63,248 nucleotides of DNA, filler included, from Hausera hauseri (GCA_046269625.1; 12 parts of 12 records of this genome joined end to end with filler, not necessarily neighbours in it); one strand, 5' to 3'; positions 1 through 61,594 are shown, numbered from the whole stretch's first letter. The notes: generated by a model from the sequence alone, not told the origin. Numbers and translations are program-made.

Positions 1-720
1 TAAAGGTTTCGCAACCCGGCTGAAATCCTTTATAAATTTTCGATAATAATTTGCCAGACCTAGGAACCGACGTAATTCCTCAACTGTACTTGGTTTTGGA
101 AAGTTTTTTATCTTTCCCAGTAATTTATCTTGATGTTTAACGCCGTGTCTATCCACTCGGTGTCGAAGAAAATCTATTTCCGCTTGGGCAAATGAACATT
201 TCTTTGGATTTATCTTTAAGCTCAATATTTCGCATCTATCAAAAAGATCCTGTAGATCTTTCAAATGTTGTTGAAAATTAAATGATGCTATTATCACGTC
301 ATCAATATATACCATGGCGTGCGGGCATCTAACAATAAGACTTCTGTCTCTCTCTGGAATATTGGTGGCCCATTTTTCAATCCGAAGGGCATCCTATTAA
401 ACTCCCATAACCCTTCACGGATGGAGAATGCTGTCTTTGGTTTATTTTCTTCCTTCACTTCTACTTGCCAGCAGCCTTATTGTAAGTCGATCGTCGAGAA
501 TATTGTTGATCCATGTAATTTATCTAATATTTCGTCAATTCTTGGTAACGGATACGTATGGTTCCGCTATTTCATTTAGAGCTCTATAATCTATACAAAA
601 TCTCATGATCCCATCCTTCTTCTTGACCATCATCACTGGCGCTGTCCATGGCGAACAACTTGGTCGGATTATTTTATTTTCTTTCATTTCCTGTATTATT
701 TTTCGTGCTTCTTGCTTCTT
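1..720 (-). pseudogene. Ty3/gypsy reverse transcriptase remnant
   Basis: Minus strand reads [38 protein letters not shown] and RRFLGLANYYRKFI, broken by stops and frameshifts. Confidence 0.92.
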
Positions 721-965
721 GCAATATGCTATTTATAGTTAGATTGTAAATATCCACAACGCGAGAACAACCTTGCACAACACAAAAACTGAAAAACAAT
801 GTGATGTATAAATTTCGAAATGAATTATTAATTCAATTTTAGGAATAAAATAATTATTGAACCAATTCCAATCGTAGATAATAAGAAATCTCGATTGCAA
901 TATGGCTAAAAAAATTCCAATTCAAAAGGTGTAATAAAATTTATTGTTGCATTAAAACAACTCAC

Positions 966-1185
966 AAGAATCGAATACGTAAATAATAAACAATTACCCC
1001 CAGACACGGCTCCATGAAGACCACAGAAACCGATAACCAATACAAAAGCACCAATAACAATCAGAAAGATATCTACAATATTCAGTACATTCGTGCTACT
1101 ATTTTCAAACGGTTCAGATGTTTCATCGAATTTTATTTTGCATAGCAGTTCAAATAAAGTTGATTTGCCGACTTTGAGCCATTGG
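966..1185 (-). pseudogene. Tetraspanin fragment (TM2-TM3)
   Basis: IFLIVIGAFVLVIGFCGLHGAVSGGNCLLFTY fits the tetraspanin GFxGxxGA..CLL signature. TM1 is absent, and the fragment ends at a GTGAGT donor-like site (960-965). Confidence 0.75.
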
Positions 1186-1564
1186 TTTTCGATTTTATAC
1201 CTTGTGTATTGGTTTATGTTAAAATTCACTAATTTAACAAGGAAGCACGTATAATATTTCTACTGGCTGTAAAAGCTACATAAGAAAAATATCTGAAAAG
1301 TCTCTTGGCAATCTGAGCTAAGTAGCAAAAATTTACAAATAATCAACTGCTCTAGACAGCGAAATCACTTCATCGTCATTTGTTGGAAGCAACGTTGAAT
1401 CACTACTGATTGAACCATGGGATCATCGAAAAACAACTCGGTTAGGTTCCGATGAATAAACAGACAAGTGACAGGAGGCACTTTCTGAACTGTAACTGTC
1501 TTCAATGTATGGACTAACTATTTTGGTAATGGTGAAGTCTTATGGGCGAATAACAGTTTTCAAG

Positions 1565-2321: not shown

Positions 2322-2807
2322 CTAAATAAAATAAAATGAAAAAACACCATCTCTGATTAGATTGACACTATCAGCGGATGTTCTAATTGGATCGTCGGGT
2401 ACAATTAAATTCCGATTAAGTGCAAAGGAATTATTCGTACCGAGTGGAGGGCGAAGAAGTTCGGTGATAACTTCCATCAAAGTCCCATCACCACCGGCGA
2501 CTACTAAACAATCTTGATCGTTCACTCTCAAAACGGACATCAAATTTTTTCCTTTTTCTTTACTAACCGTCTCGACAAGCGTCACCAAATATCCATTAAA
2601 ATTGAGCAACGGGAAGAGGTTCTTACTGTAGGATTTGCTGCTGCCTCGATCATTCGCCACGGGATTCAGAATGACTGTTAGCTTTTTCAATTTATCTGTC
2701 GGTCTCAATAGTTCATTGCCGTATTTCCTTGCTTTCTGACAAACGGATTCAAGTATGGCACTTAGTAGTATCGATTTCTTAGGAAGAGTTCTAACAGCAG
2801 AAATCAT
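2322..2807 (-). pseudogene. AGK: Acylglycerol kinase-like N-terminal fragment with in-frame deletions
   Basis: CQKARKYGNELL, KKLTVILNP, VVAGGDGTLMEV and PLGTNNS match the DAGK catalytic motifs of AGK. Segments after the N-terminal TM and before PLG are missing, and the C-half is absent. Confidence 0.8.
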
Positions 2808-2877
2808 CGTGACTAAATTAAAATTTTCAGTAAAATTATCAAATTTTGCATTTATCTTCTTTCGAAACGGGAAATCT

Positions 2878-14672: not shown

Positions 14673-14772
14673 NNNNNNNNNNNNNNNNNNNNNNNNNNNN
14701 NNNNNNNNNNNNNNNNTTAATTAATTAANNNNNNNNNNNNNNNNNNNNNNNNNNNNNNNNNNNNNNNNNNNN

Positions 14773-15290: not shown

Positions 15291-15790
15291 CCGATTGCAA
15301 ATGTTGACAGTTTTTCTCTAAATTAGCTTTAATTTCTACCAACTCTTCTAATTCGACTTTTTTATCGTTAATCTTTTTGATTGCTTCCAAACAAGCTTCG
15401 ATGATACCAGAATCAAGAATATCACTTCCTGGTTTAAGACCTTGCCATTTATCTTTAAACTTTTCAATCTCTTGCTGAAACTGGTCTTTTTGTTAAAAGA
15501 CTGTCTCTCATCATCAATTGAAAATTTTCCATCATTAATTCAAACTTTGTCCATTTTTTATTGAATTTGAGCAACTGTATCAATGCCACCACCCGCTTTA
15601 TCTATTTGGGAACTTAGCCTAGTTCGATCTCTGTTAAATACTCCATATTTCTGGGTGTAGACGTACGCATAGAACTTTGATTGCATTTGTTAAATTTGCA
15701 TCAAAATTATCCACAGTTCCTTTGATATTTTTCCACAGTGAATTAAGAAGTGCGTCGGAATTGTTTTGAATTAAAGTATCAGCGGACATT
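15280..15790 (-). pseudogene. DYNC2H1: Cytoplasmic dynein-2 heavy chain tail fragment
   Basis: Across frameshifts it reads AGGGIDTV, KW.KFELMMENFQLMM and QEIEKFKDKWQGLKPG, matching the recalled DYNC2H1 tail AGGGLET..KWDKFELMMESHQLM..ELEKFKARWDQLKPG. Confidence 0.8.
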
Positions 15791-18277: not shown

Positions 18278-18286
18278 ATAATTGTG

Positions 18287-19990: not shown

Positions 19991-20191
19991 GGGGTAAAAC
20001 CATGCGCCACCAGGCGATTCAATTGTACAAAGGCCAAGAAATTCTATTGACCGGTTATTCCAGATATGAAATATTAAAATTTTNNNNNNNNNNNNNNNNN
20101 NNNNNNNNNNNNNNNNNNNNNNNNNNNTTAATTAATTAANNNNNNNNNNNNNNNNNNNNNNNNNNNNNNNNNNNNNNNNNNNNATACCTTT

Positions 20192-27400: not shown

Positions 27401-29451
27401 TTTCCAACAAGAGTCAACAACTGTTGTAGGGGAATGGGAACAAATCCAGTATGTTAATCAATTGAATCGATTATTATCATCCAACAATCCCAAACACATT
27501 CGGGGATACATAGTATGGTTCCCTCATACAAACACAAATGGTACCGGTATTCCTGGATCCACCAATAATGTTGACATTAACCAACATTAACCAATCCTAC
27601 CAATGTAAGATGGATTTCAAAAACGTGGCTCCACGAGCACACATACAGTTTCCTCTGAAACTATCCACAATTGCTAGCACTACAAGACACCTATGGGATA
27701 AACCCAATAACTGACGTCACTCACAAAAATCATGCCATGGCCAATGGTCACACAGACCCCTGAATCATATACGCTATATGATCCAAACGTGCCTCACAAA
27801 AAAAACATTTAATTAATCACATGCCTGGTAAACCCCTGGTAAAAAAAATGACCAACCAATTGTAGACTGCTGTACTGGCTACAGAGTTACAAAAGGCAAA
27901 TGTCAAATACACACCCAAAATTACCACTTAGGGACTGTTACAGAATCAGGAAAACCTAGCGCTTCGAGTTCCCAACAATACCCAATGGGGAAGCTGTACT
28001 TCAATCACACAGACAATGCAGTGCGGTGTCAAGACACTACAAAGAGTACTTAGCTTTTTGTGGTTAGAGTCCAAGAGATCCATTTATGGAGCAGCTGTGA
28101 TGTAGGGAGGTCATCACCCAGATCCATCAGGGAAGATAATGAACTGCTGACCGCAGGCAAAAGGCACCGAAAACTTAAACAGCAGCCACACATGCAGGGG
28201 GGGATACAACAGGAGATCAACCAGGATCATCCCAAGAGCCAGATGTACATGTTATGAAAAAAAAATATGAGTTAACCACAAAATTCATAACATAAATGTA
28301 ATGTTATCAATATAAATGTATAATACTCTAAGTCCCACACCGTCATCTGAGGTGAAAAAAAAAAAAACCCAATAGACAGACTTCACAAAGTGACAAACTG
28401 TCAAAGACCAAAACCACCCAAAACTTAAATGTATAGATCCCAAAGAATGATCAGCAAGTAACTCAAGAAGGTTATTCGATAACACAAATGTCCTGAAAAG
28501 TAAAGAGGACAAGCTACCCAAGACATAGTCAGGAATACTAAATAGCACAGAAGTCCAAATTACAAGACCAGACAAGATACCCAAGACAAAGTCAAGGAAT
28601 ATTCAAATAAATAGAAGCTCAAGAAACAAGAAAGGATGAGAGCCCAAGATGAAATCAAGAGGTACGAGCACAAAGACCTAGGGCACAAAACTTGACAAGC
28701 CTACCAAGACGAAGTCAAGGAGGGTCACCTAATGAAAAAGACCAGAGGACAAAACCGGACGAGCCTACCAAGACGAAGTCCGGAGCTACTTAATAGCTAA
28801 TAAGTCCAAGGAACAAAACGGACGAGCAACCCAAGATGTCAGAACCCTCAATGCGATCTGGTTCAAATCCGAATAGGCAGAAGAGCCATCTCGTTAAGTC
28901 TAGGGTATATTTTCCAGATTTAATAAAGCACTGAGGAGAACTGCATACTATAATGATGAATATAATGTGTGTACACTTGTTTAATAAATTAAACCTCAAA
29001 ATGTAGAAAACACACAAAATATGAAGGAACAACAGAATACATATTAAATTTTACAAATTTAATATATAATTAATAAACCTGGCCAAAACACGGGCCAAGG
29101 ATGATCATGGAAGAAATGAAGTTTTAAATAAGCGTTTTAATAATAAAACAAAATTGAATGAATACTATTACTAAATGAGCATATAAGAAAAAAACAGACT
29201 ATAATCTTCTTAAAAAGAAGTAAAGTATGCTTAAATTGTGTAAATATATTAACTATCACACAATCACAAAAACAATGATATAATAAACTTGCCGGATGTT
29301 TGTAAGTTTACTGCAGAGAATGACGGGACCGTTGCCAACTGCCATTACAGTTCCAACAATAACGGTTTTCATTTACAAACACTTTACATCTGACAACCGT
29401 CAATGACGTATCGAAAGAAGCCGTCTATAATGGGATTAACGTTGGGTGTAT
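24490..29451. mobile_element. Circular or tandem 4,885-bp unit, possibly a collapsed LTR-like element
   Basis: 24490-24566 is identical to 29375-29451 (77 bp). A TATA run, AATAAA and TGTA...TACA ends lie around the junction. Confidence 0.6.
28505..28840 (+). repeat. Degenerate ~63-bp tandem repeat, 6 units
   Basis: CCAAGA core at about 28518, 28581, 28644, 28704, 28768 and 28831. Confidence 0.8.
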
Positions 29452-29939
29452 NNNNNNNNNNNNNNNNNNNNNNNNNNNNNNNNNNNNNNNNNNNNTTAAT
29501 TAATTAANNNNNNNNNNNNNNNNNNNNNNNNNNNNNNNNNNNNNNNNNNNNGAATTGGAAAGCCATGGAATTTCATATGAAACAATATGAATATAAAAAA
29601 TTGTTGTACAAAGAAAATTTATGAAAAATTTAAATAACTTTAAAAAAATTGAAATCCAACTAGTGTTATTTATTTAAACAATAAATTTTTGATTCTTTTT
29701 ACAAATTCAACATTCAGATCACCAATTGGGTGAATGTGGACACCACAATTGAGTACGATAGTTTTTGAGATGGTTTCCGGAAGAGGGAGACTCATTACTC
29801 TCAACGCTAGAAATATAGCTATTCGAGGTATGATAATGTACAAGATCATTTACAAAATTTTTATTTTTTAAAATTGATTTGATATTCATTCTTATAAATG
29901 AATTGCACGCTCGTAAAATTGAATGTAAATCCGATAAAA

Positions 29940-31250
29940 CTAATAAAATTTTGGAGAAGGGCTTCCCATCAAACGACGCTGTCTACAATCGATAATTAAA
30001 TTGTAATGTGAAAGAGAGTCTGATCCAAGGATTGGACTTTGCACATTGGCTATTGTGAATTTCCAAGAAAAGGGTTCAGAGAAGCCTGATAGGGAAAAGG
30101 AAAGATTTGCTGTGCCAATGGTGCGCAACGTTTCACCATTGGCTGTAAATAATGGTTTACTGATTAAAGAAGATTTTTGCTATTCATAAAAAAGAGGAAG
30201 AAGTGAGACTGCAGCTCCAGTATCAATGAGGAAAGACATGGAAGAATTTTTAGACGTAATGGTAGCCTGCAGTTTGAAGACATTAAAATATGCATTACGG
30301 CTGTTTAGTGAAGCGTTTGAGCCTTGGTCATAAGTTGCCGTGACTTCTGGTGGCGTGGTTAGTTTTCTGAAGGCGCCATTGAGTGTGACTATGCCGAAGA
30401 ATTGTAAAATTTCCAGCTTTGTATGCACTTTCGAGCATTGTCGTGAAATTTATTGTGACAAATGTAGACAGACTCATTTGATATCAAGCTTTGATTGTAA
30501 AATCTGCATCCTATGCAGTATGTATTTGCGTTCTGCTTATATTTGGAGTGAAAAAAGCAGGTCGGACCGCGCACAGGAGAACTGTTGCGCGAAGAGCGAC
30601 TCGTCTTATGGGGAGCTGCCGATTCCAAGAAAAAAATTTGCGTGGCAATATCATTTGATTGAGCTTATCTGTGATGACTGTAATTGCTTGTCGTATTGCG
30701 ACATTCTATATGCAATGATTGAAGCTGATTAACAGTGTTTGTTATTGTGTTTTGATTGTATATTTTTGGTGCTCTCAGTACTGCTGCAATCGTGAGTTGA
30801 TTTTGACTATGTATTATATCAAAGCTTTTGTCAGCCAACTGTGCCAAGTTTTCCAGTGACGCACTCTTCTCAACGACTGTTAGAAGAGCTCGAATTTCCT
30901 TGGGCAAGGGTTGCAAAAAATAGAGTCTTAAGAGATCGGAATTGGTTGATTGTGTTAAACTTAGCGTGATCAGTTGCGATAAAGAAGTTCGAAGAAAGTC
31001 TGAGGGTTTGGTATTGCCCAAGGTGTTGCCATTGAAGTATTTTTGGATTATTAGGCCTATAGAAGGTTCATCAAGTTTGAGTATTGCAGAATGTAGGGAG
31101 TTGTAGGGGTGAGCTTCTATGAAAATTTCGGATAGGTCTACAAGGCGCGACTTTAAAGAGGAAGGCAAATAGACGAGCAAGTTATTGGCTTTGAGAAACG
31201 GTTCAGTGAGTTTGTGTGCATTAAGCCACTGGACGTGAAAATCTAATCAG
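29940..31250 (-). mobile_element. Ty3/gypsy gag-protease remnant
   Basis: LGNTKPSDFLR gag motif, CFFH...C...C knuckle, FLIDTGAAVSLLP and ILGSD; same gag/protease type as C3. Confidence 0.88.
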
Positions 31251-32212
31251 GTACAATGTGAGTTTTGATTGTCAAGGAAGAAATCTACGCATTGGTACGT
31301 AGTGTTGATGGTGGATTTGGTAAGATGGACGACTGGAATTGTGTATGTCTTTTTGGTTTCGGAAGTGTCGGAATTGATATCAGAGCAACCAAAAAGTCTG
31401 GGTGTGATGCGAATAATGGGAAAGACAGATCGGAAAGGCATGGATATAGGTGAGTTGTCTGTTGGATGAAGAAGAAAACCGTTGATATGTAGGTAGAAGT
31501 TTCTAAAAGATAGATGTTTTGTGATGAATGAATGGAGGTGTTGTGATTTTGTGTATGCGTATGTGTAATATTCATATAGATGTTTATTATGGTAAAAGAA
31601 GGAAATGAAAGTGCGCAATTGGGTGCTAGCTGCATAATGTGGTGGCCCCTGACGCCTCGCAGCCTGATCCGCGACCTTGTGGCATGGAACCGAAAATGAA
31701 ACTGCGCCACAGTGGAAATGACATATTAGAAAGTAGGAGGATGTGAGGACATGGGGCCAACCCCCCCCCCAGGATTGGAATTCAATATTCAATAATCAAT
31801 ATTTTTATATGGCAAATTTTGGAAATCAATATTTTATATAGGAAAAATTTGGCGCAGCCGGGGTTTCACTATTTCCACCCCCAATTTCTTTAAATTTTGC
31901 AAAATTGATATAAATACCCTTGTGTAAGTGTCACTTGTGAATAAAAATGTCTCAACCGGATAATTTGTCAACATTAAAATCGAAAATGACACTTTATGGA
32001 GCATTGTTAAAGTTGAAAGAAGAAGAAATTCATCAAGGATTACACGAAGTTTAGCCTTTGTTTTCTACGACAGATGATTTAGTGTATATAGCACCAGAGG
32101 TTCTGTTGGAGTTAGTACGAAGCAGACTGATTTATGCTACTCCGATGATTCATAAAATAGACAAAATGGTAGAAGAATTGGGAAATAGTCAGAAGGAACT
32201 AAACAATGTAAT

Positions 32213-32948
32213 TGTTACAGTTGGGATGGCCCCTACCGTCTCCCACTATATCAGTATTTAAATTCAAGTTAGATCGCTTTTCAGCAGGTTAGGATTACTC
32301 GTTCTCGAGTAATCTGCTTGTGCCTTATTAAGTTTAAATAAATTATATGCTGTACTGCTGGTACTTCGTGCGGTTTAGATGATTGCCTTAGTTTATAAAT
32401 TCTCGACTTAACTATTTGATTTTAAGTATAAATTTACCCTTATGGTAGTCAAATCGTCCTTAAGGGACGATGGAAACTAGAGAGTGATTTTAACAACAAA
32501 CGAAATAAAATTAACCTTTATTTTTCGACACCAATAACACAATAATTCTTCAAGAATGATTCACTAATGATAACGTCAATAATAATTTGCATTTTTGTTC
32601 AACTCGGAATTTGGTTTCGTCAACAATATCGCTTCAGTTAAGATTTGGTTGTCCGACTCTAAGTCGTACACTGATTTCGTTCCTGAACTTCTGATTTCTA
32701 TCGTTTTGTAATCTGCTTATATAGCAGCAGATCTTGCAGTACAATATTTGTTTTCACTTAAATTCAATTTCGTAGACTTATGTACAAATAAAACTTAATT
32801 ATCTAGATTTCTAAACTACTTCGGTATTTGTTTATTTCACAATTCTCCATTTTCTTATTCACTCAATTTCTATTAAAATAATATTTACATTTTCAATGGT
32901 AATTCACAATGTTAAAAATTTTCAATTTTCTCCACGAAATGACTGTAA
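32213..32948. mobile_element. Probable solo LTR interrupting an ORF that starts at ~31948
   Basis: Begins TGTTACAGT and ends ACTGTAA (terminal CA missing); non-coding interior. Confidence 0.4.
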
Positions 32949-33169
32949 TTTTCTCCCATGTATGTTTTCATAAATTAGTGGAAATTTACATTGTTTTAAC
33001 ATTGCTTTGAGTATTTTGTATATATATTTTACTTTATGTAAGATTAATTTTAAACCCTGAAATGAACTGAAATGGAGATCATTATCGGCGATGACGATAA
33101 ATGGTATGATCCGAGAGCAGTCTGAAACGTTCTGGGCCTTTCAATAAAAGAAAATCTTTCATATTTTCC

Positions 33170-34085
33170 AATAATTCAATACTACCATTAAAGTTTGTTT
33201 CTGGAAGGTATGCAAAAAATCCATTTACGGCTTCAATGGATTCGTCATTTGATGTAAAACGCTTTCCAGACAGGAATTTTTCAGGTTTTGAAACAGATAA
33301 TAGTTAAAGGGAGCCAAATCTGATGAATACGTTGGATGTTCAATCAATTTGTACTTCAATTCGTTGAATTTTTCCATCGCTAAATCACCTGTGTGAACAC
33401 GTGCATTGTGTTTTTCTTCTTTAAAGCAGGTCTTTTTTACGATTTTTTTTCATCCAACTGATCAAAAAGATTGCAATCATATTCAAAATTAATTGTTTTA
33501 TTTTTTTGAAGATAATCCATCAACAAAACGCCCTTGTAATCCCGAAAACTGTTACCATAACCTTCCCTGCTGATGGAACAGCCTTTGACTTCTTTGGTGC
33601 ACTTCCACCGGTTTCAATCCATTGTTTCGACTGCTTTTTTGCTCCGATGTATACTGGTGAATCCAAGTTTCATTAGCAGTTATGAAACGACACATGAGAT
33701 CCATTTTATTTTCCTTAAAACGATTCAAACACGCCTGAGAAATACGCATTTAAACACGTTTTTGTCAATTGTTACCAAATGCGGCACCCATCTTGCAATC
33801 TTTTTATATGCAAATCTTCATGCAAAATATTTCCAACTCGTTGTTTAGGGATGCCTGTAGCCTCAGCTATTTCACTCACTTTCACTCGTCAATCATCTAA
33901 CACCATATCATAGATGTGTTCAAAGATTTGTGGTGTTGTAACTGTTTTTGGACGATCTTCGGGTAGATCCTCTTCGAGGCTGGAAGGAGCAGATTTAATA
34001 AGAGCAACCAATTTTTTTACAGTGAGAAGTGAAAGCGATGCATACTTATACAATTTTGACAATTTCTGATGAATTTCCTTTGGAC
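33170..34085 (-). mobile_element. Mariner transposase remnant
   Basis: RPKTVTT, FITANETWIHQY, NARVH and HPTYSSDLAP (YSPDLAP motif), with multiple lesions. Confidence 0.9.
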
Positions 34086-35967
34086 TAGAGGGAAAATGGG
34101 GGTTCTCTCTCACCCCGGGGGGAGTAATTGATAAATTAAATTGCATATGTGCCAATCGATAGTGCACACTGTACACTATCGATTGGTAGTGTGTTAGCTG
34201 ACAATGCCCTTAGACACCGGTGCTACGCACATTTTTGCACATTTCACAAAATCGATAACTGCATAGTGCATTATTGATTAAATAGATCGGGATAAAATGC
34301 TAATCGATAGTGCACATCAGTTAGAATCGATTAGCCCACAGTGCAGGAGTGCAGCACATGTGCACGTGTGCAAAAATCAATAATATGGGATTTCCGATAA
34401 TTCCAATATTGATGATTAGGACACGGCACCGAGTGCAGTCAATAGCACACATGATGGACTGTGTCAATGTGCAGTTAGAATTTAAATATATTGATTGGTT
34501 TTCAAATAATTCCCAACTGAGGGAGAACCCGCATAGGCCTTTTCGCTATTAAATAAAAATCGATAATCAAATCCGGGGCAAGTAATTGTAGGTAGTACAC
34601 ACGGTGCACTACCAATATGGAAATAATCAATGTGGAGGTGCCCTTGGATAAGGTTGCCAAAGCACTTTTTCACTTTTCACATATTTGTCACTGCACAGCG
34701 TAGGATTGATGGAATCGATCGGTGTCAAGTGCAGGTAGATAGAGCACATCGATATGCACCTTGGTATATACTGCGCAGTGCAAAAGCAATAATATCGTAT
34801 TTACGATATTTTCAATATTGATGATTAGGACATGTGACTGGGTGCATTCAAACAAAAGCATGGTACAGTATATGAATGTGCAGTTAGAATTTAAATTTGT
34901 CGATTAGTTTTCGAATAATATCAATCCAAAGTGCAATTGAGGCAGACTTCCTATAGGCTTTCTAGGCCCTAAGGGAACAAAATTCGATATTATAATTAGC
35001 GGGAACAGATAGAAAGTCGACTATGGTGATGTCGAATCTCAAGTCAGGTATTTGAAATTAGAATATTTTAACATCGAATATCCAACTATTCGAAAAATCT
35101 AACAAAGGCATTCGATTCCTCATATATGAAAACCCCCTTATGCATAAAAATCATTCCACGAAAATGTACTATATAGATACAAAATCAATATTTTGAATTA
35201 AGCAATATGCGCATTTAAAGTCCAGTGAAGCGGAAATCGGTAAATCTAATAGCGGGGTAGGATAGGAAGTCGTGCATATTAAATTTTGAAATATAATGTT
35301 AGATATTCGAATTCGAGCTTACAAGTAGAATACTTAGCTATTCGAACTGAAATATTCGGTGAAGCATGCATTATTCGACGAATCTAATGAAATCATTCGA
35401 TTTCCCATGTAGGAAAACCTATTTGAATTTGCGCCGTCATGTGTTTAATTTAACTGATTCATTAAAACAAAAAGCGCATTAAAACCAATCACTAAGCGAG
35501 ACAGTACATGGTGATATGGCAATATATTTCATTATTTCCAAAATCACTTTAACGATAGGTGAGTTTTTTAATTGTGCTCCTCAAAATAATTGGTTGATTT
35601 TTAGATATGCAAATTTTACAGCAGATGTTTGGTTCAAATCCACGAGCCTAAAAACTGCCACAGTATAATAAACAAGTACTTTGGCCATCTATACAAAGGA
35701 TTCAGTATTATATATGCTTTACATGTGAGGTAGTGTGTCACATCAATTATTAAGACTTTTACAATGTCCATAAACAGCACATAATTTCCTTCAGCAAGTC
35801 GAAAAAACAAATATTCAGTGCAAATATGCAAATAACGACTTTTGAGTCAAAGGAAAATCAAAGATGCAGTTTATACGTGTATTGCACATGTGCAATACAC
35901 AACCCTCAGAACTGCAATAATACTATGAGGAGCTATTATTAATACAAATTTAACAGGATCTTCTATT
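34086..35967 (+). mobile_element. Palindrome-rich DNA element terminus, copy 1
   Basis: Collinear with the reverse complement of 42848-44606; starts TAGAGGGAAAA and truncates the mariner. Confidence 0.8.
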
Positions 35968-36441
35968 NNNNNNNNNNNNNNNNNNNNNNNNNNNNNNNNN
36001 NNNNNNNNNNNTTAATTAATTAANNNNNNNNNNNNNNNNNNNNNNNNNNNNNNNNNNNNNNNNNNNNCCAAATACTAAATATACAAATGAGTTGCAACAA
36101 TATTACGATAGTAATAAAGTAACATCTACAAAAGTATTAACAGCACTGAGCGGAAATGAGATAAATATAAAATGACCTTATAGAAAAGTTACTACGGGAC
36201 CAATAACAACTCTAAGACCGTCACGAACGACGTATACTCATTCAAGGTTGGAAATAATACTAATATGCACCATAACCCCCATAATAATAGCATTATGTAT
36301 ATTACTGATTGTAAGGTTAATTCTGTACTTACGAAAACGTGGCAGAACAAATTGGGTTAGAATTGACATGCGACGTATAGCAAATATCTTGGATACAGAT
36401 AATCCAAGTTGACGATGGTTTCAGCGGATTGTTGTCGATGC

Positions 36442-36533
36442 TGTGGTGCCCACAGCAGCCGGTGCCCTTTGGCCCATTTGGTTGGGCACGGCCGGGCGTC
36501 GGCTGCCGCCGCGTTGGGCCCATAGGTGGGCCC
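36442..36533 (+). other. Conserved GC-rich structured motif, copy 2
   Basis: Homologous to 2878-2970 on the minus strand. Confidence 0.85.
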
Positions 36534-36548
36534 CCGATCTCTCGCCTC

Positions 36549-36672
36549 ATGAAAGTCATGCGAAACATTCGTCAGATGAACTGCAGTCACAATAGAATTG
36601 TTCACGTCGATGCGTCCGTTTTTGACTGCAGGCATTTATTGCAGTTGATCAATTTTAATTGGAATAAAATGG
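36549..36672 (+). pseudogene. Leucine-rich repeat fragment
   Basis: IRQMNCSHNRIVHVDASVFDCRHLLQLINFNWNKM fits LxxLxLxxNxI....F. Confidence 0.65.
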
Positions 36673-37619
36673 TTCCGGTCAAGCGTTCAAATCGATCTAC
36701 TGCTGACAAGAGACCATCATGGTTAAACTCTGAATCTCCTCCATCAAGTCCAATCGCAGCTGATAAAAAGAACATCTGTAAATCTAAGAAATCCAAAAAT
36801 GGAACATCTAAAATTTGACTCGCATAATTCGCAGAAAAATTGCATCAAAACTGCTAATGACACCAACCAAAGCTTTTACTAAGTCACTGTGCTTCAAATT
36901 AAATGGACGAAAATGGACCAATTGTTAGAAGTCAACGGCGGGTATTTTCCTTTAAATCAGATCCAACTAAAACGGACATCAGAAATTACTTCATTCGTGA
37001 AAGTTTAAAGGACAAATATTCCCCAAAACGACAACAAAAGTGGTAGATTATCATCGCCATCCAACACGCGAAGAGTACCAACTAGCGAGAAAAATGAAAA
37101 TGTAAAATTTAACGGAAAAAATTTAGCAGCATTAAATGGTAGCAAACCGGAAACCAAAGAGTTGAATGCCAGCAGACGTAATACTTTTCCCATAGACTTA
37201 TCAATTCAGATGAATGGTCTGTTAAAGCAATTCGATGATCTTGAACAAGACATGAAAAGTCCAACAATAACTGAGTACTCCATACCATGTAGCTCTACTC
37301 ACAATCACCACTGTTGTTTGTGCTGTGATTATCTACAACAACCCAGCCATAGCCGATACTCCTTGCAAGGAACCGAAGAATTTAATGGCAACAAAATTCT
37401 CTTTCAAATTACAACAACAGATCATCCAAAATATCTTGACTCCTCAGAAAATCTTTCCAAATCTCGCATCCAGGAAGTAATGAGTGATATGGCAAAAACA
37501 AAGAGAAGCATATCAACAATAACCAACTCCGAAAGGAATACATCTTTTCTGAAGAAACGAATCTTTGAATTAGAATCAAGATTGGACATTTTGTATCGAG
37601 CATTAATCACGTGATAAAT

Positions 37620-37948
37620 CAGAACACAAAATCTAATTTTATTTTCAAAAAAAGTACTGAAAGCCAATGTACTGATATTGAAAGGCAACTCGATTTATTG
37701 AAAAAATCATTATCAAGCATCAATGGTATTGCATAATGAAGTCATTCATTGTTCCTATATATGATATTGTAGAATTTCTATAAAATGTCGTATTTTTCAA
37801 ATGCAGATTTTTTGAACATTTGAAATTTCATGATGTATTAAAATTAAATAACAATGAATTGAAATACATATCAAATAATCTGTTTTCCTCGTTGAAATCA
37901 TTGAGATATCTGGATTTGACCTCGAATAAAATAACTGTTGTAGAGTAA
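37620..37948 (+). pseudogene. Second leucine-rich repeat fragment
   Basis: VLKLNNNELKYISNNLFSSLKSLRYLDLTSNKITVV, followed by AATAAA signals; not in the ORF track. Confidence 0.75.
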
Positions 37949-38169
37949 TAAAAATTTTTGTTTTAATAAAAAAATAAAGTTTAACGCGTTTGAATTGAAT
38001 TTGTTTATCTTACGCAATTTTTTTTCAACAAATTCGTATTCCGTTTATTTTTAGAAGGCGACTGTGGATAATGTACTAATTTGTTCATCAAACCACACTA
38101 TACATATATTCCTATGGATTTTTGTTTTTATAGAATATTTATTTTGGTTTCCGTCCATAACGCCAAATA

Positions 38170-39524
38170 ATGTGTACATCTGATGATTCGGAATTTCACT
38201 TTCACGACAGTTATATTATTCATATTTTCAAATGAATGCGAAACAGCAGCTACAATGAATCGACATTATCCAGCAAGAAATTTGAAATATCACGAATCAG
38301 TGGGATTTGTGAGAAATTATTCGCCAGGGATTACGTTCTGCAATTAATCGGTAACAAAAATGGTTCCCTTTGTGCCTATTATCCACCGACAATTATCATC
38401 CGTATTAGAAAAGTGAGAAGGACACAGGGGTTCATGTGCAATTCATGTCACGGAACAGCATTTTTATGAAATTTATTTACAATTCTATCAATGCACGATG
38501 TAGTCAATTTCGGGTGCCCACATTGAGTTTTAAAAAGAATTTCCTCTGTCGACCAAGTACGTTAAGTGGAACATTTGAAATTTACGGACGGCAGTGTATC
38601 TCATCGTTGTTCGGTACGTCAAATGAATTCGGGATTCCGTCGACATCTGGAAAGGAAACATTCGATAAATTACGTGGGGATGATAAAAATTTATTGAAAA
38701 ATATTCAGATAAAATATATTTTCGATTTTATACTGGAAAATAAGAAAATGATGTTCGGATTACCAGTTAATTCATCTGAAAGGGTAGGTCGACACAATCG
38801 ATACAAAGATTTCGAAATCATCAGTTTACCGTATCCAGGATGTGAATTTTTCAACGATTGGCAATTGACAAATTACGACCTGACTGGGGCGATGTTTGAA
38901 TGGGATAAAGTGGAAATTAATTCTCGACTCAGTAGAAATTTGTCGGCGACTCAAGCAATGACGATAAATATCAATTGGGCACAGTATATGACTTGGGATT
39001 TGACAGAATTGACAACGAATTATCTGAAATTGATTTTGGGAATTATGATTGAAGATAACTGTGGTATCCTCATACACTATATATCTGGCTGGGACCGAAC
39101 TCCGTTATTTGTCAGAATCATCAGATGTATATTGTGGGCAGATGGGTTATTGCATCAGTCTCTGAATCCATCTGAAATACTCTATCTTACTCTTGCATAT
39201 GATTGGTTCTTATTTGGTCATCAAGTTAAACAGCGGCTTGAAGCTGTAGAAGAAATGTTGATATTTGCTGTTGCATACCTCCGTCACGCATCAACAGACC
39301 CGACAACATCAGTTCGCCATATATACGGTGATTTCATTGAAGCGTTCTGTTCTCACTTGACCCGATCAAGTAGTGATACCGCACTCAATACTAAAGACCC
39401 AAATTATATATTTCGGGAAATTTTTGGTTCAAGCCCATTTGAAAGCCTTTTTGAAATGTTAACCGATTGCGGTACTGATATGTGTCAAATTATCGATACG
39501 ACTCTAATAGAAACAATGAAGTGA
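38170..39524 (+). pseudogene. MTMR14: Myotubularin-related protein 14 (Jumpy/EDTP) copy, frameshifted, catalytic Cys to Tyr
   Basis: LFARDY..NGSLCAYYP, LPYPGCEFF, HYISGWDRTPLF (normally HCISGWDR) and LAYDWFLFGH. Confidence 0.92.
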
Positions 39525-39589
39525 AAGTTATGTATAATAGTGGTATTATACCAAACAGTGTAGACTGATCAAGAAGGGGACACGGAGAT

Positions 39590-39945
39590 ATAGTGATGGA
39601 TAAAAGGACACAGGAAAAAGTATGGAAATTTAGGAAAACGGAAAATTTCCAGGAAGTATCCTTCAACGGAATGGAGGAAAGTGGGAACGATACGCAGATC
39701 TTCACGCTAGAAGAAATATTTGTCGAACAGATATATAGGAAGTTTAGTGGCCTACCAGGAATCAAATTAAAGATACAAGACAGATGAGAATATTGTTTAT
39801 TGGACACAGGGGCCAATGTAAACGTCACAAGCAAGAAGACCGTGGATAAACTTGCAAAAACACACACATAGAGGAATCAAATATTACACAACGATGTGCA
39901 AAAAACAGCCCCCTAGATTGCCTGGGCACACTGAAAATAGACGTA
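39590..39945 (+). pseudogene. Gypsy gag-end/aspartic protease remnant
   Basis: LPGIKLKI..CLLDTGANVNV (DTG at 39803), then NSPLDCLGTLKI. Confidence 0.8.
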
Positions 39946-40149
39946 GAAATGAAAGGTGACTCTCTCAAAGCGAATATAGTTGCCCAGACTCAGCAGGCAC
40001 AGGAAGTTATAGAAAAAAACATCCCCAGGCTGAAAGCTGCACTTGAGGAACATGGGATGTCCATCGAAGATCTTCTGGTTTCTATCCAGTCTGACTCAGT
40101 AGAAGATTACAGCCAACAGCAACACAATCATTTTCAGGATCATGTCTGA
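39921..40149 (+). other. fliK: Bacterial flagellar hook-length control protein C-terminal domain fragment
   Basis: LG.LKIDVEMKGDSLKANIVAQTQQAQEVIEKNIPRLKAALEEHGMSIEDLLVS plus a Q-rich tail fits the FliK C-terminal pattern. Confidence 0.7.
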
Positions 40150-40335
40150 AAGGGTGCCATTTCATGGGTGTAGTTCTGGAAGTTTCCATTACCATAGCAC
40201 TGCCTGATAACTGTTTTCTGTTCTATACAACAGGTTGCAGAGTCAGGGTCGGGGTAACTGTTAAGTAACCAGAGTCAGAAGCACTAGAAATAAAGAGTCC
40301 CAGTAAAAAATGGTGTGTCTGTTCAACAACAATGT

Positions 40336-40501
40336 CAGGGCTGTAGAGTCACAATCAAGGAGTCACAGTAATTTTTGGATGGCCAGAATCGCAACCAGAG
40401 TCATAGATCAGAGTCAGTTATGAGTAGCCAGTATCTGAGTCAGAGACATCAGAAATAAGGAAGCTGGTGGTGAAATATCAACTCCTGACTCTGTTGCCCT
40501 G
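40336..40501. mobile_element. Decayed GAGTC-repeat MITE
   Basis: Imperfect TIRs CAGGGCTGTAGAGTC ... GACTCTGTTGCCCTG with internal GAGTC repeats; a second partial copy near 40230. Confidence 0.55.
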
Positions 40502-41120
40502 GGTTACAGTCAAACAAAGCTGATACCATCATTTCTTCTTTGATCTTATGATCTGTGTGACGTCATAATCTGTGTGACACGCGGAAAAAAGTATGAATTT
40601 AGATCTATCTGGAGGAAGCAGGAATGAATAGATCTCTGAATGAATAGAAATCTAAACGTTCAGGTGTACTCATCCGTACTTAGATCTTAGGATATCTAGA
40701 TGATACATGTACTACTAGAGATCATGGGAAGTTCAGGTATCTTAATGAGACAGGAACTGAGAGATACAACGATGTTCTAATACCTTAATGTGAGAGAGGC
40801 TGTTACAGATTATGTGATGTTCAGATATCTGAATGAGTGCGGTAGATGACATTAGATAATTGGATGCTCAGGAATCTAAATGACTAAGGTGTGATATTTG
40901 TATTAGAGTAACGGGATGATTAAGGATTGAGTCCAAGGTGTGCGCCACTCTTTAGTTTTCCATATTTTATTACAAATCTGTGTCAGGATTTCAATCATTG
41001 ACTCTCCTCCAGCCTGGATANNNNNNNNNNNNNNNNNNNNNNNNNNNNNNNNNNNNNNNNNNNNTTAATTAATTAANNNNNNNNNNNNNNNNNNNNNNNN
41101 NNNNNNNNNNNNNNNNNNNN

Positions 41121-42847
41121 GATTCTTGCGGTTTTTTAACCACTGTAGTGGTTTATGATCAGTGTAAATAACAATAGGTTTGGTTTCCGATAAATATTGG
41201 TCATCTAACGTATAAACTATTGCAAGTAATTCACGTTCGATTGTTGAATAGTTCTCTTCATGTTTTTTTAATTTTCTTCCTTCAAACAATATAGGATGTT
41301 CTTGTCCTTGATCATCCTTTTGTGATAAGACAACTCCGATTCCAATTTTACTTGCGTCCGTTGCTAAGAAATATGGTTTCGACATATCGGAGTACGCTAA
41401 TATAGGTGGGGCTAATATATTATCTTTCAATTGTTGATAAGCCTTTTGACATTCTTGAGTCAAAACAAGTTTAGAATTTTCCTGTAATAATGAATGTAAC
41501 GGTGAAGCTATCTATTGGTAATTTTTAACAAATTTTCGATAGTAGCTTGTGAGGCCAAGAAACTTCGGGACTCCCTTAAGCGTCTTTGGTACCGGAAAAT
41601 CTTGGATTTTATTTATTTTTCAAATCTGAGGACTAATGCCTTTTCGACTTGCCGTGTGACCCAAAAAGTCTACTTTTGTTGGAGCAAAACAGCATTTTTA
41701 TTCCAAGTAATGCACACCTCCCCAACATATCTTTAAGATGTTCTTTATGTTGCTTATAATCGATTGATGCAATTATTACATTGTCTGCCTAACACATTAT
41801 ATGTGGAGCATCCATCGTATTTATGTCCATGGCCGTTTGAAATGTTCCTGGGGCATTTTTCATTCCGAGTGCCATGCGGTTAAATTCATAATGTCCGTCA
41901 GCAATTACGAAAGCTGTCTTTTATTTATCCTCTTCTTGAACTTCTATTTGCCAGAATCCTTTTTGTAAATCTAACGTAGTGAATAACGTCTTATCCTTCA
42001 ATTTATCCAATATTTCGTCGATTCTGGGTAGCGGATAAGTGTTGTCTATAGTTATTTCGTTCAAGGCACGGTAATCCACACAAATTCTAATTGACCCATC
42101 TTTCTTTTGTACCATTACAATTTGAGCTAACCATGGCGAATTGCTTGGTCGGATTATATCATGTTGTTTCATCTCGGCTATTATTTCTTTTGCCTCTTCT
42201 CTTTTATCATAATTAAGCCTATACGGTCTCTTTTCGATGGGAGTCTCCATTCCTTGTTTTAATTTAATGCCATGTTTGATGACTGATATTATTCCCATAT
42301 CATATTCATCTATTGCGAATACATTTTCATATTGGTGTAATATTTTTATTATACCTTCCTTTTCTGCACCTGTCAATAGACTTTCTTTACCAAATAGATC
42401 ATAGTCATTCCAATTGATGGGAGTTTTAACAAATTTTGTTATTTTCTTATTTTTGTTGAGATGGCTTTTTAATTTATTTATTGGTTCATTTTCTAATCGT
42501 ATTCCGCTTTCTGTTCATGTTTTACGTCGCTGTTTTTCCCTGAATTCTGACAACTACTGTACAGTAGAAATAATAGCTTCCTTTGCATTATTGCCTATAT
42601 CTTTTACGATATATATAGGCAATTCGTGTGCCTTTTCTCAATAGTTTTGGTTTGTTTGAAGTATTGGCTATCCGAACAATTACTTGTTGTTCTCGAATAT
42701 TGTCTATCGTATGAGCAATCCATAATTCATCCTTATTTATAAAGTTTACATTTGGTTTGATGTATACATCTCCTTTATCTCGGCCTTCTACTAGAGCTTT
42801 GGGCACAATCTATGTTCTAGATGGTATTAACACATCTTCCTTAATGG
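41121..42847 (-). mobile_element. Ty3/gypsy pol remnant (RT, RNase H)
   Basis: IIRPSNSPW, RICVDYRALN, YPLPRID, LDLQKGFWQ, TDASKIGIG, ERELLAIV and TDHKPL. Confidence 0.95.
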
Positions 42848-44606
42848 ATACACATATGAACTACATCTTTGATTTTCCTTTGGCAGGAAAGTCGTTATAG
42901 GCATATTGGTACTGAATATTTGTTTTTCCGACTTGGTGAAAGAAATCCAGTGCTATTTATAGACATTGTAAAAATCTTCATAATTGGTTTGACACACTAC
43001 TTCACATGTAGGGCATATATAATACTGAACCCGGTTGTATAGATGACCAAAAGTACTTCTTCATAATACTGTGGCAATTTTCATTCTCTGTAAAGATTGC
43101 ACATCTAAAAATCAACCAACTATTTTGAGGAGCACAATTAAAAATCTCACCATTCGTTGAAATGATTTTGGAAGTAATGAAATATATTACCATTTCAACA
43201 TATACTGCCTCTCTTATTGATTGGTTTTAATGCACTTTTGTTTTAATGCATCAATTAAATTAAATACATGTCGGTGCCAAATTTAAAGTTTTCGACCATG
43301 GGGAATGGAATGACGTCATTAGTTTCTTCGAATAATGCATGCTTGATCGAATATTCTAGTTCGAATAGCTAAGTATTCAACTCGGAAGCTCGAATTCGAA
43401 TAGCTAACATCATATTCCAGTTCAACATACGTGACTTTTTATCCCGGCCCTCTTATGGATTTATTGATTTCCGCATCACTGGGCTTTAAATGCACATTTT
43501 GCTTAGTTCGAAATATTGATTTTGTATCTATATAGTACATTTTCATGAAATAATTTTTATGGATAAGGGGGCTTTCATATATGAGGAATCGATTGCCGCT
43601 GTTAGATTTTTCGAATAGTTCGATTGCCATAGATTGCCATACTCGATTTTCTATCTATCCCCGCTAATTATAATATCGAATTTTGCTCCCTTGAGGCCTA
43701 AAAGGCCTATGGGGAATCTGTCCCAGTTGCACTTTGGATGGATATTATTCGACATCTATTAGATAAATTTAAATTCTAATTGCACATTCATATACTGCAT
43801 TATGTTTGTGTTTGAATGCACCCAGTCACATGTCCTAATAATCAATATTGGAAATATCTGAAATCCGATATTATTGATTTTTGCACACTTGTACATGTGT
43901 TTTTGCACTGTACAGTATATATCAAGGTGCACCTCGATGTGCTCTACCTACGTACACTTGACCCCGATCGATTCCATTATTCCTACGCTGCACAGTGACC
44001 ACTATGTGAAAAGTGAAAAAGTGTCTTGGCAACCGTATCCAAGAGCATCTCCGCCTTGAGTATTGCACTGAACCATAGTACATCAAGTACTCTACCCGTC
44101 AGTATATGTGCCATATTGATATTATTTATTTTCATTTCATAGCGGAAAGGCCGATTGTAAGTCTGCCTCAGTTGGCAATTATTCGAAGACCAATCAATAT
44201 ATTTAAATTCTAACTGCACATTCACATAATGCATCGTGTGTGTTTTCTATTGCACGCAGCGCCGGGTACTAATCGTCGATATTGGGATTATCGGAAATCT
44301 TATATTATTGGTTTTTTCACACTTGTGCGTGTGCAGCACATCTGCGCAGTGCACTAATCGATGTGCACTGAAGTGCACTATCGATTATCACTTTTCCCGA
44401 TCGATTCGATCAATTGTGTAATGTGCAGCGACCGATTTGTGAAAAGTGCAAAAATGTGCATAGCAAAGGTGCGTAGCGGCACCGTCGCCTAGCACACTAT
44501 TAATCGATAGTGCATAGTGTGCATTATCGATTGCCACATGTGAAAATTGATTTATCGATTACTCCTCCCCCCGGGGTGGGACAGAACATACATTTTTTCC
44601 CTACTA
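42848..44606 (-). mobile_element. Palindrome-rich DNA element terminus, copy 2
   Basis: Reverse complement of 34086-35883; terminus TAGTAGGGAAAA. Confidence 0.8.
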
Positions 44607-46377
44607 CCAACGTCGCATGTTATTTGTGCTTTTGCTTCATCTTCTAGCAGAAGATTATATTCAACTGGTATCTTGACTTGGTTCTGATGTTATCATTATG
44701 GAAACACCTTTATCAATAATACTCACAAATGAAACAATTTTGTCATAGATTACATGAGCGTTGAACGATGTATCAAACGTGTAACAGTTTGGTTTGTGGC
44801 ACTGTAAAAGACGATTAATTCATTTCATCCTGTTTGAATATACGGAAAATGATGTAGGATACTGCACTAATTAGGGAAATATTCAAATAGTAGCCAATGA
44901 ATTTTTATAAAATCTGGCAGTAACACAATACACATCATGTTGATTATTTGTCACAAATCATAAAGTTAAATTGGCTTCCATGCTGAAGTTTCAAATTGGT
45001 AACGGATTGTTAGAACCATTATGACAAGTTGGGTAATTCGGCCAATATCCATTTGTATATATTTCGTTCATTGCGGTCCACTAGTCAGAGGTTAATCCAT
45101 TCGATTCTTTTGATTCTCTAGAATAGCAAATGCGTTTGTTATCATATGTTCCTTCATTAATAATCTTGTCGTTCTTTAAATATCCTGTACCAATATTTAC
45201 GATCGGTTCGACAGTCGATCTCTACATCATAAGATCTTCTCAAACTACCGCACCTCGCGTCAATTCGTTCACTGGATACCTCACATTCCCACAATCCGAA
45301 TTCTCTGAACAATTCACCCAGACCAACTTTTATGTTACCATTCACTCCTTTCGGTTTAATTTTCGAGTTTATTCGACCATTTTCCAGGTTGTTCATCTTT
45401 TAGATAAAGGGCTCAAATGTATCCTTCTGAGCATTCTTTGACTCGACAGTTTCAAACATCACAATTCGAGGCAAATGTTACACTTTCATTATGAAAATCT
45501 TTTTAACATTGTAATTTTTTCTCATGTAATCTCTTAAAACATTTTTATATCCGATCGGAAGACGTTCAGACCTCTCACACGATTTTCATTTTCCACTTTT
45601 ACAAGCTCATGCACCACTCCTAAGCGCTGAATATTTCTGTTAATTTTCATCTAACAATTTTTCCCAAAAAGGCACAACAGAACAGTTTTGCTCCAATTAT
45701 GAGAAATATAGTCTTCCTCCAGGACTTTAACACATATTTTTAGGTGAAACTTATTAACATCGGCAGTGATATTTGATTTCGGCTCAATTATATGGATGAG
45801 TTTCAAAAATGAAGCTCTATTGTTCTCGTAACCATTCTGATCAGTCGTAAGTGGCGTGAAAATGCCGATTCTGGCACAGCAATCCCCATTCCCTCCCCGA
45901 ACTTCCAGTCATGTGGTAGCTTGCGCAATTTTGCACGGATTTGCGCACTTCCAGTCTTTTTTGGTCAATTTTGCATAATTTCCGTCAAATTTTACGCAAT
46001 TTTGGCCACGTCACACGCGAATTTTACGCAATTTTGTCATGAAAATTGCACAGTACATGACGTTCTCACGTGACAATTTAAAAAAAATCCACAAATATGC
46101 TCAGAAGATTGCACAATCGACATTAAATTAAAAGTGTCTTTTTGGAATTGCATGAGAACCAGAAACATTTTACCGTTTTCTATTCGGAATTGAGATCAGC
46201 TCATCGGAGCGGTTCTAAAGGTCTATATAGTGGTCGGTAATATGGGTAACTGGCTCAGAAAACTGTATGCCGATTCTGGCACAGTTCCGGTTTTTCAATG
46301 AAAATGGCCCGAAATTCAATATATCAGCCCATATGAGTCACACAAAGTTCGTTGAGATGTCGTTCTATGCAGCTCAA

Positions 46378-47832
46378 TTAACCCTATTGGGTTAGAAGTT
46401 GCAAATTTGCAAGTTATTTAGAATTTAATAACAGTTTGCAGTCATCTAGTTTTACCCTACGTGTGTTTCTATGTCTATGGACATGTGTTGCATCATTTCA
46501 ACAGTTCTTTGCTGCCAAATTCTGTGCTCAGCTTGTCACATTTGTTGATCAGCTGACGCCATGTGAATGTTTGCTTTCTCAGTAGATAATGCGTACACGT
46601 TGACGACTTCTATCTGATCTCAGGGTTCGTAAATTTTATTTTTCATTAGCTAAAATGATGAATAAATGACGTTAGACGAAGAATCATTCATTAGTTGTGA
46701 AAGAATTTTATATTTATAAGCGCTGGATAGGCGATAAAAGTTATGTTACAAATTTGCAACACTTGGCTCATAAGGCAACATATGGCCATATAAGTGAACA
46801 TGTATACCGTTCAAACTAGTTATTATGCAGATTATACTATGTGTGATGTGTGTAGTCAATAATGTACACATGATGCAGAGAAATTTTAATGTTGCTTTAT
46901 TAATTCTGCTTGTTTATGTTTTCCGATTCGCTAGACAGAGTTTCGATGAGTTCAAGAAAGCATTATAGTATAGGTGAAGTTTTGGATCTTCTTTATATTC
47001 CAGATGGCACAGTATCAGATGATGAAGAAGATGCACATGAATGTGATGATACTGGAAAATCGGATAAAGATTTTATGCCAGAGACATCGAATGCACAGTT
47101 GAGTGCAGAGTCAGAATCAGAAAATGAAGAATCCAGACTCCATCGTTGTGGAACAAGATTCGTAGTGGAGGTATAGAGTCGTGGGGATGTTGAAGTAAGC
47201 AGTGAAGCATGTGATTTTGAAAATGATGCTTCACATGACGATAGTGACATCAGTACTCCTCATGCAGTAGCTAAAAAGGCTTATCGTTGAAGTGGTCGAG
47301 GAAATGACTAGAGAAGTGGAGCAGATTTGGAATTTTGTGAGCAGCCATTCTCTCAACCACCAAATGCCACATGTGCATACGAATATTTGGAATGTTTTAT
47401 GATCGAGGGATGTCTGAACACACTTCTAAACAAACTGATATCTATGCATACCAGCAGAAAGGAATAGCCCTGCGATCTTTAGAATGCCAAGGTGCAGAAT
47501 ATACTGGTCTCCGACTTGTCGTATCAGTAACATTGCAGATATGATGTACAGGACACGATATGACAATCTACGAACTTTTATTCATATGAACGAAGAGGAA
47601 GGATGAAGATGGTTACGATCCTCGTTTTAAAGTTCGTCAATTGATTGACCAGTTTCGTCAGGATTGCTTTAACATTGAGCCAGAACCTTTGCAGTCTACT
47701 GAAGAACAAATGATACTCTTCAAGAGTAGAAATGGAATGAAACAATGTACAAAGAGCAAACATCATAAGTGGGGCATAAACGTTTTCACCACATATTGTG
47801 TATCAGGATTAGTGTATGATTTTCTGGTGTGA
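46378..47832 (+). mobile_element. piggyBac element: left end and decayed transposase
   Basis: TTAA followed by CCCT, a TTGCAAATTTGCAA subterminal palindrome, an acidic N-terminus, and FKVRQLI..EEQMILFKSR..KQ..SKHHKWG..SGLVYDF. Confidence 0.9.
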
Positions 47833-48234
47833 ATTTTTCGATGTGAATTTTCGATGCTATTTTGACAACTGGTTCACCTCAATAAAACTGCNNNNNNNNN
47901 NNNNNNNNNNNNNNNNNNNNNNNNNNNNNNNNNNNTTAATTAATTAANNNNNNNNNNNNNNNNNNNNNNNNNNNNNNNNNNNNNNNNNNNNTGAGTTTCA
48001 AAACGCGTTTTTAGAGTCATTAGCTCATCTTCAGGTGGATGACATGTAATACTGAATAAATATTTCAAATTATTCTTTCTGAAAAAAAATCTGCCAAGCG
48101 GGAAAATGCACATCTCTGCAGACGGGCTTCTTGAACATGACAGTGGGTTTGCTCCAATTAAGTAGATACTCAGTCAACAGACCCAAATCTAATTGCACAA
48201 AGTCTGTGTATAATGCTTCTGCTTCAGGACTTAC

Positions 48235-58106: not shown

Positions 58107-58310
58107 NNNNNNNNNNNNNNNNNNNNNNNNNNNNNNNNNNNNNNNNNNNNTTAATTAATTAANNNNNNNNNNNNNNNNNNNNNNNNNNNNNNNNNNNNNN
58201 NNNNNNAAACTTTCCAGAATTCCTACACTTGGCCCTTTGTTCCACAAGATGATGTGTGAATTCTCTATTACATTTGAACCGCATATCAAAGAAGATGGTG
58301 CCGAAAAAAT

Positions 58311-61590: not shown

Positions 61591-61594
61591 AATA

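Follow-up and report, generated by a model that had tools for sequence, protein, structure and literature searches.

The GC-rich motif that begins at position 36442 in this sequence from the flatworm Hausera hauseri has an outer edge that is an element boundary, the sharp end of a high-copy repeat set among unrelated flanks. The motif and the LRR fragment directly behind it were multiplied together early on, and copies that also carry a Ser/Asn-rich ORF, which form a subset, spread later. We tentatively read the motif as the left end of a non-autonomous flatworm DNA transposon with one-sided capture of genomic sequence, probably by Helitron-like read-through, and give this reading not quite an even chance.

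The window, that is, the whole stretch of DNA analysed (63,248 nucleotides), consists of 12 contigs of 4-7 kb with artificial linkers of the form N44-TTAATTAATTAA-N44 between them. The motif occurs in contigs 1 and 8, which are unlinked loci because an artificial linker joins the contigs. An earlier note on this DNA had listed an LRR, ORF pieces, a second LRR, MTMR14 and a protease behind the contig 8 motif, and all of these pieces are present, in that order and on the plus strand:

36068..41020, no strand: contig 8, which carries the string under study and is bounded by linkers on both sides
36234..36441: another repeat, broken at 36441 by the motif; its start is a bin edge and not a mapped boundary
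36442..36556, plus: GC-rich element terminus (115 nt, GC 0.71), starting TGTGG, with a 5-bp terminal hairpin
36557..36674, plus: LRR fragment 1, amplified with the motif (LRR_8 E=0.0073; frame 36534-36686)
36675..37725, plus: broken Ser/Asn-rich coding pieces with a coiled-coil-like end (longest ORF 37009-37611, 201 aa)
37726..37800, plus: intron-like segment (GT start, GC about 0.26)
37801..37944, plus: LRR fragment 2, exon-like (LRR profile E=3.6e-9)
37945..38054, plus: intron-like segment, GT...AG (110 nt, GC 0.20)
38170..39524, plus: MTMR14 copy without introns, most likely a pseudogene (probable, inferred ATG at 38170; 3' ORF 38409-39521 open)
39525..39934, plus: broken gag-end/protease remnant of a gypsy-like LTR retroelement, very high-copy (contig records 39534-39703 and 39760-39934)
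39935..40149, plus: bacterial FliK C-terminal fragment (PF02120 E=1.4e-14; atlas 0.94)

Read evidence comes from the contigs of one public run, X1 (share 0.54), the only run listed, which may itself be the sample behind the window. According to the depth tool's own note, summed depth does not equal copy number, and the nesting argument therefore rests on individual contig records; those inspected were the 8 listed of 7,897 for contig 8 and the 8 listed of 595 for the motif region. In this run, the loose ends of 284 contigs lie before 36442 and their flanks agree at 0.36, compared to 0.34 expected for random flanks; 7 contigs continue past 36441 with sequence found nowhere in contig 8. Summed depth is 12,653-14,939 within the motif and 3958 in the bin to its left (36234-36399). 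On the inner side, other motif copies depart from the window sequence at 36514-36534, and agreement over the next 30 letters is 0.61-0.77. From these departures we infer a common motif end with variable sequence behind it.

The second copy of the motif heads a string of its own in contig 1:

2861..2970, minus: second terminus copy (87 of 115 aligned columns identical, 76%)
2340..2834, minus: diacylglycerol/acylglycerol-kinase-type fragment directly behind the motif (DAGK_cat E=4.4e-13)
906..1193, minus: tetraspanin fragment (E=4.2e-8), then a 60-nt GTGAGT...TAG intron (965-906)
1..726, minus: broken reverse-transcriptase remnant at the string's far end (tblastx match to the contig 9 reverse-transcriptase region)

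The two motifs align with a score of 109, which is beyond chance, the best of 500 shuffles having scored 30, although blastn missed the pair. The order in contig 1, counted from the motif, is the kinase piece, an ORF of no known kind, the tetraspanin piece with its intron and the reverse-transcriptase remnant. Thus contig 8 does mirror contig 1, as had been claimed, with the same layout and different cargo at an unlinked locus. All eight identified pieces of the two contigs read away from the motif (a probability of 0.004 for independent pieces, two of which are weak matches). The kinase piece had no homologues among 1104 candidates. There is no third copy of the motif in the window, and a pattern made from it found no matches in metagenome contigs or in viral contigs, both collections being poor in animal DNA. 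Classification of the motif as a ribozyme or other known RNA was rejected. It has no Rfam match (one weak, unrelated match lies at 40595-40710), its folding z is -1.9 on the plus and -3.1 on the minus strand, and only 1 of 28 pairs shows a double change between its two copies.

Individual contigs tie the first pieces of the contig 8 string to the motif. Two diverged records, 36491-36589 (13 differences in 99 letters) and 36516-36589 (9 in 74), bridge the motif and LRR fragment 1 with at least 31 letters on each side. A third, 36639-36802 (6 differences in 164, 96%; depth 40.8), crosses from LRR fragment 1 into the Ser/Asn-rich ORF, with the step near 36670. Identity to the window rises outward, from 87-88% in copies of the motif with LRR fragment 1 to 96-98% in other run X1 copies of the Ser/Asn-rich ORF pieces. 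The diverged bridging contigs and these identities together indicate joint amplification of the motif and the 5' half of the string, the oldest part of which adjoins the motif. An increase in age along the string had been put forward as a check, and a gradient is seen, from old beside the motif to young away from it. Summed depth is 165-298 over LRR fragment 1, 40.8 from 36675 and 15-45 on to 37727. The Ser/Asn-rich ORF matched no Pfam family above the cut-off (atlas best 0.80) and had no homologues among 616 candidates. This ORF and LRR fragment 1 may derive from one gene or from two.

Farther out, summed depth is 6.6-7.9 at 37728-37893 and 38060-38391, which is about single-copy, and 15-29 over the body of the MTMR14 copy. 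Among the listed matches (8 of 7,897), no record bridges the junctions between the ORF and LRR fragment 2, between LRR fragment 2 and MTMR14, or between MTMR14 and the protease. The claim of a cargo string behind a shared GC motif thus stands for LRR fragment 1 and the Ser/Asn-rich ORF, with contig 1 showing the same layout; LRR fragment 2, MTMR14, the protease and FliK are candidate cargo. The objection that the junctions might be unsupported fails for the two junctions nearest the motif, which are bridged by independently assembled contigs.

The single-copy depth of the distal junction bins would also be expected if there were no capture, and a short interspersed repeat had simply inserted among decayed segmental duplicates and transposon debris whose blocks were duplicated passively. 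Repeats adjoin both sides of the string, and a right end is absent, as this explanation would have it. However, at two unlinked loci cargo starts no more than about 40 nt from the inner end of the motif, diverged copies share the motif and LRR fragment 1 but not the sequence left of 36442, and the common orientation of all eight pieces also speaks against passive duplication, which we regard as rather improbable.

The exon-like LRR fragment 2 measures 144 nt, two 24-aa repeats, if a degenerate acceptor at 37799-37800 is used, and 138 nt with the AG at 37805-37806. The match is clear (160 PDB sequences at E<=0.01 in addition to the profile E-value). LRR fragment 1 shows the repeat pattern, but its profile score is weak and below the cut-off. 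Two separate LRR fragments had been proposed, and both are borne out, the first by its pattern. The string is not intron-free throughout, since LRR fragment 2 retains intron-like flanks. Because this fragment and the tetraspanin piece of contig 1 retain intron-like sequence, both strings point to putative capture at the DNA level.

The MTMR14 copy is a clear homologue of the phosphoinositide 3-phosphatase and gave 995 homologues in the search, the best of them 43-49% identical. The stretch 38215-38400 is homologous in one frame and the stretch from about 38400 to 39479 in another, which corresponds to one frameshift at about 38400. In-frame stops lie at 38233 and 38406, and there is a one-codon gap at 38501. 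The copy is therefore broken, as the earlier note had said, but by a single frameshift accompanied by two stops and the gap, not by several frameshifts. The change of HCISGWDR to HYISGWDR that the earlier note had pointed out is found at 39075, where the window sequence reads Tyr instead of the catalytic Cys at 39078. The Cys is kept in 268 of 268 homologues that cover the active site (1 of 269 examined lacks coverage there), and a Cys-to-Ser form of MTMR14 has been used as an inactive control, according to the accessible part of 10.64898/2026.04.04.716461. The window copy differs from active MTMR14 in the lost Cys, the two stops and the frameshift.

The frameshift and the 38406 stop are not sequencing errors, since both are covered by an exact 212-nt contig (38261-38472) from run X1; the 40 difference rows listed, with 258 more beyond them, do not include the Cys-to-Tyr site. 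Nor is this the only MTMR14 locus. Other MTMR14-like copies in the run include a 202-nt contig with 19 differences and another contig with a 3-nt insertion at 38501. FastTree groups the window copy with protein P0181, which is 57% identical across 187 columns, and with six fluke proteins at an SH-like value of 97, making a flatworm host likely; the 58 rows comprised 19 chosen matches, 38 further representatives and the window ORF, and long branches could contribute to the grouping.

Eleven of 73 near-invariant residues are altered in this copy, and two of the eleven adjoin a gap or sit in a poorly aligned end. The homologue median is 2.4%, and only 1 of 155 homologues is as high. Two features speak mildly against a pseudogene: all three disruptions fall in the first 240 nt (0.006, calculated post hoc), and the 359-codon 3' ORF is free of stops, with a simulated P of about 0.02-0.06 at the observed 11-15% amino-acid change; the simulation used substitutions only, and P would rise if some of the change came before release. 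On balance the copy is most likely a pseudogene, a decayed duplicate that is probably without function, with a small chance of past retention. A pseudophosphatase product, which the earlier note had suggested, is unlikely because of the eleven altered residues and because two stops and the frameshift separate the start from the rest. This candidate was rejected, as conserved residues are eroded to near the neutral level despite the open 3' ORF.

The MTMR14 copy has no introns, and retroelement coding pieces terminate both strings. Both features would be accounted for by LTR-mediated retroposition, in which a Gypsy-type LTR would begin with the motif and template switching would bring in the cargo as RNA. 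Such a process would also yield the shared orientation of the pieces. The TGTNR start of the motif agrees with an LTR, as does the majority flank before 36442, in which 4 of the final 9 columns have G (a probability of about 2e-5 for each column under random flanks, although the contigs are not independent), as would follow if some copies had a polypurine tract. Chimeras of several genes are known to arise in this way, and like the window strings they stand beside retroelement coding pieces in the portion of PMC5131818 available to us. However, the window string keeps intron-like flanks and lacks a full LTR, and intron sequence is kept in the tetraspanin piece as well. The motif stops at about 115 nt without a CA end or primer-binding site shared by the two copies, and motif copies in the run diverge just behind it. 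Retroelement debris is common in the window, making a retroelement at the string's end a weak point, and the absence of introns from MTMR14 may simply reflect an intron-free parent. We consider retroposition improbable.

The remnant behind the MTMR14 copy lies in a repeat of very high summed depth (up to 284,414 in run X1) and contains an LLDTGA motif. Its retroviral-type protease profile is weak, with an RVP E-value of 0.023 that falls below the cut-off. The identification of a gag/protease remnant is sustained by the motif and the depth, but the label 'gypsy' is probable by resemblance only. Just behind the MTMR14 stop, at 39532-39568 on the plus strand, is an 8-bp hairpin followed by 13 nt, CTGA and T, a geometry like that of Helitron1. 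A comparable hairpin-CTRR site occurs in 3 of 300 shuffles and in none of the other 11 contigs, the stem length having been picked post hoc. The retroelement contig 39534-39703 runs through the site, which is probably not a boundary here.

The string had been thought to end in this remnant, which is wrong, because the FliK C-terminal piece continues on the same strand past 39945. FliK joins the protease remnant at a look-alike peptide motif, and its CpG content is 0.30, compared to 1.2 in MTMR14. None of 123 pattern matches was confirmed as a FliK relative among the genome contigs. The run X1 contigs leave gaps at 39950-40120, which falls within FliK, and at 40586-40880; such gaps prove nothing by themselves. 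Only 29 letters of the FliK tail lie inside an exact record.

These circumstances, together with the short, unplaced contigs of a repeat-rich genome, raise the concern that the assembler stitched the whole string together. The bridging of the first two junctions by independently assembled contigs and the exact contig matches at 38261-38472, 40121-40336 and 40313-40585 argue against this, and a chimera of the whole string is very improbable. For FliK alone it stays a serious explanation, and an assembly chimera and a real bacterial insertion are about equally likely.

The termini of the element offer further means to compare transposition mechanisms. Both copies of the motif begin with TGTGG, a TGTNR terminus, which is a feature of Gypsy LTRs and Ginger TIRs in the available text of PMC2836005. 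From base 1 the contig 8 copy can form a hairpin with a 5-bp stem and a 3-nt loop; the contig 1 copy requires one G-T pair. A hairpin of this type arises by chance with a probability of 0.03 under strict pairing and 0.19 when G-T is allowed, so it is weak evidence. The flank before the motif ends in C in contig 8 and in TT in contig 1. No right end of the element is found within either contig.

The motif could thus be the roughly 115-nt TIR of a Ginger-like cut-and-paste element with an integrase-type end, which acquired its cargo via template switching or gap repair and was then re-transposed as a composite. The length of the motif lies within the Ginger TIR range of 40-270 nt (the same portion of PMC2836005). 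Its inner and outer limits are sharp, and Pack-TIR elements share with the strings captured genomic fragments, introns included, and re-amplification into multicopy subfamilies (PMC8277862 and PMC2836005, from excerpts). However, a second, inverted motif arm was not found in contig 1 or contig 8, nor was a target duplication seen. The flanks match neither CCGG/CCGT (Ginger1) nor RTATAY (Ginger2) in either copy, and both strings read away from the motif. Pack-TIR cargo in animals is as a rule single-copy and short, with a median of 224 bp, in the accessible part of PMC8277862, in contrast to the multi-gene, kilobase-long cargo of the window. This origin of the strings is doubtful.

Rolling-circle read-through fits the fixed end, one-sided growth, retained introns and age gradient of the strings. 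A partner enzyme would nick at the motif, pass the proper right end and copy downstream host DNA into the new site. Repeated rounds would append fragments distally, so that the oldest and most numerous cargo adjoins the motif. LRR fragment 2, the MTMR14 copy and the protease piece would then be either the most recent captures or simply the flank of the landing site. Read-through capture has been shown by experiment for Helraiser, whose left end is essential and whose right end can be bypassed (PMC4778049), and bat Helitrons capture sequentially at the DNA level (PMC4224331), both sources having been available in part. In the same excerpts, HelibatN and Helraiser resemble the window element in that one end is fixed, capture is at the DNA level and includes introns, fragments are added sequentially, subfamilies are nested and intron-free gene copies occur occasionally. 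In contrast, the window element is without a 5' TC, an A/T target or a demonstrated hairpin-CTRR end, and no RepHel partner was found among the 43 ORFs scanned in the window. Helitron1 elements are defined by a 5' TC and insertion between A and T (PMC11417382, in part), and the starts and flanks of both copies differ from this definition.

The left end of Helitron2 has a 5' T and a terminal hairpin in the accessible text of PMC3627910. Such an end is present in contig 8 and in contig 1 when the G-T pair is allowed, and one-ended transposition is described for HLE2 in the available parts of PMC3627910, PMC11417382 and PMC5148889. The T/T target of this group is matched at only one of the two sites, contig 1. 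Its asymmetric 3' inverted repeat was not found, there being no inverted 12-mer match with two or fewer mismatches in 4.4 kb and 2.9 kb downstream, although this end could be situated outside the contigs. No family is represented by its full set of defining ends, and the element is filed in no named family.

Planarian Burro elements are flatworm retroelements with host domains, but these domains reside within one intact polyprotein (PMC6431247, in part). That Burro elements carry a myotubularin was not confirmed, there being no mention of one in the accessible portion of that review. No report of a flatworm element of this kind was found in the literature, including the available parts of the planarian genome papers PMC11410931 and 10.64898/2025.12.11.693146; Repbase, subscription papers or supplements may describe the terminus. 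Capture of gene fragments by transposons is a known kind of event, and the type of terminus seen here fits no named family cleanly.

Several other contigs of the window have features of their own. A Polinton/Maverick-like contig (52280-58106) encodes a dUTPase, an A32-type ATPase and an integrase, and on the opposite strand a TBP domain that is possibly a captured host gene. The minus strand of 14773-20083 carries long ORFs without identification (370, 222 and 204 aa) and, at the contig end, an ORF with a MIF4G domain (E=1.7e-16). Contigs 6395-10397 and 20184-24389 are 72% alike over 2.7 kb, and broken ORFs in the latter match a Monjiviricetes-type fusion glycoprotein. A 1.8-kb repeat with internal direct repeats is common to 29552-35967 and 41121-47891 (78% identical). 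Contig 24490-29451 begins and ends with the same 77 nt, which would fit a circular unit, a tandem unit or a k-mer overlap from assembly. The plus strand of 58207-63248 carries a series of co-oriented ORFs (100-370 aa) without Pfam matches.

Multicopy, multi-gene capture in animals outside Helitrons is rare. For example, 4 multicopy families were counted among 370 Pack-TIRs in 100 genomes (PMC8277862, in the part available). The presence of strings in 2 of the 12 window contigs suggests that the process is common in this genome. Pseudogene copies arising from capture could lead annotation astray or supply small-RNA pathways. Given a contiguous assembly, the capture mechanism would be directly testable by means of the nested age gradient. 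A bolder and unlikely version of the proposal is that the motif belongs to a very abundant and so far undescribed family of flatworm transposons that has an integrase-type TGTGG end and serially captures and re-amplifies intron-bearing fragments of host genes over kilobases, including whole coding sequences such as MTMR14 and even bacterial DNA (FliK). If true, this TGTGG-ended serial-capture family would be to animals, at genome scale, what Pack-MULEs are to plants.
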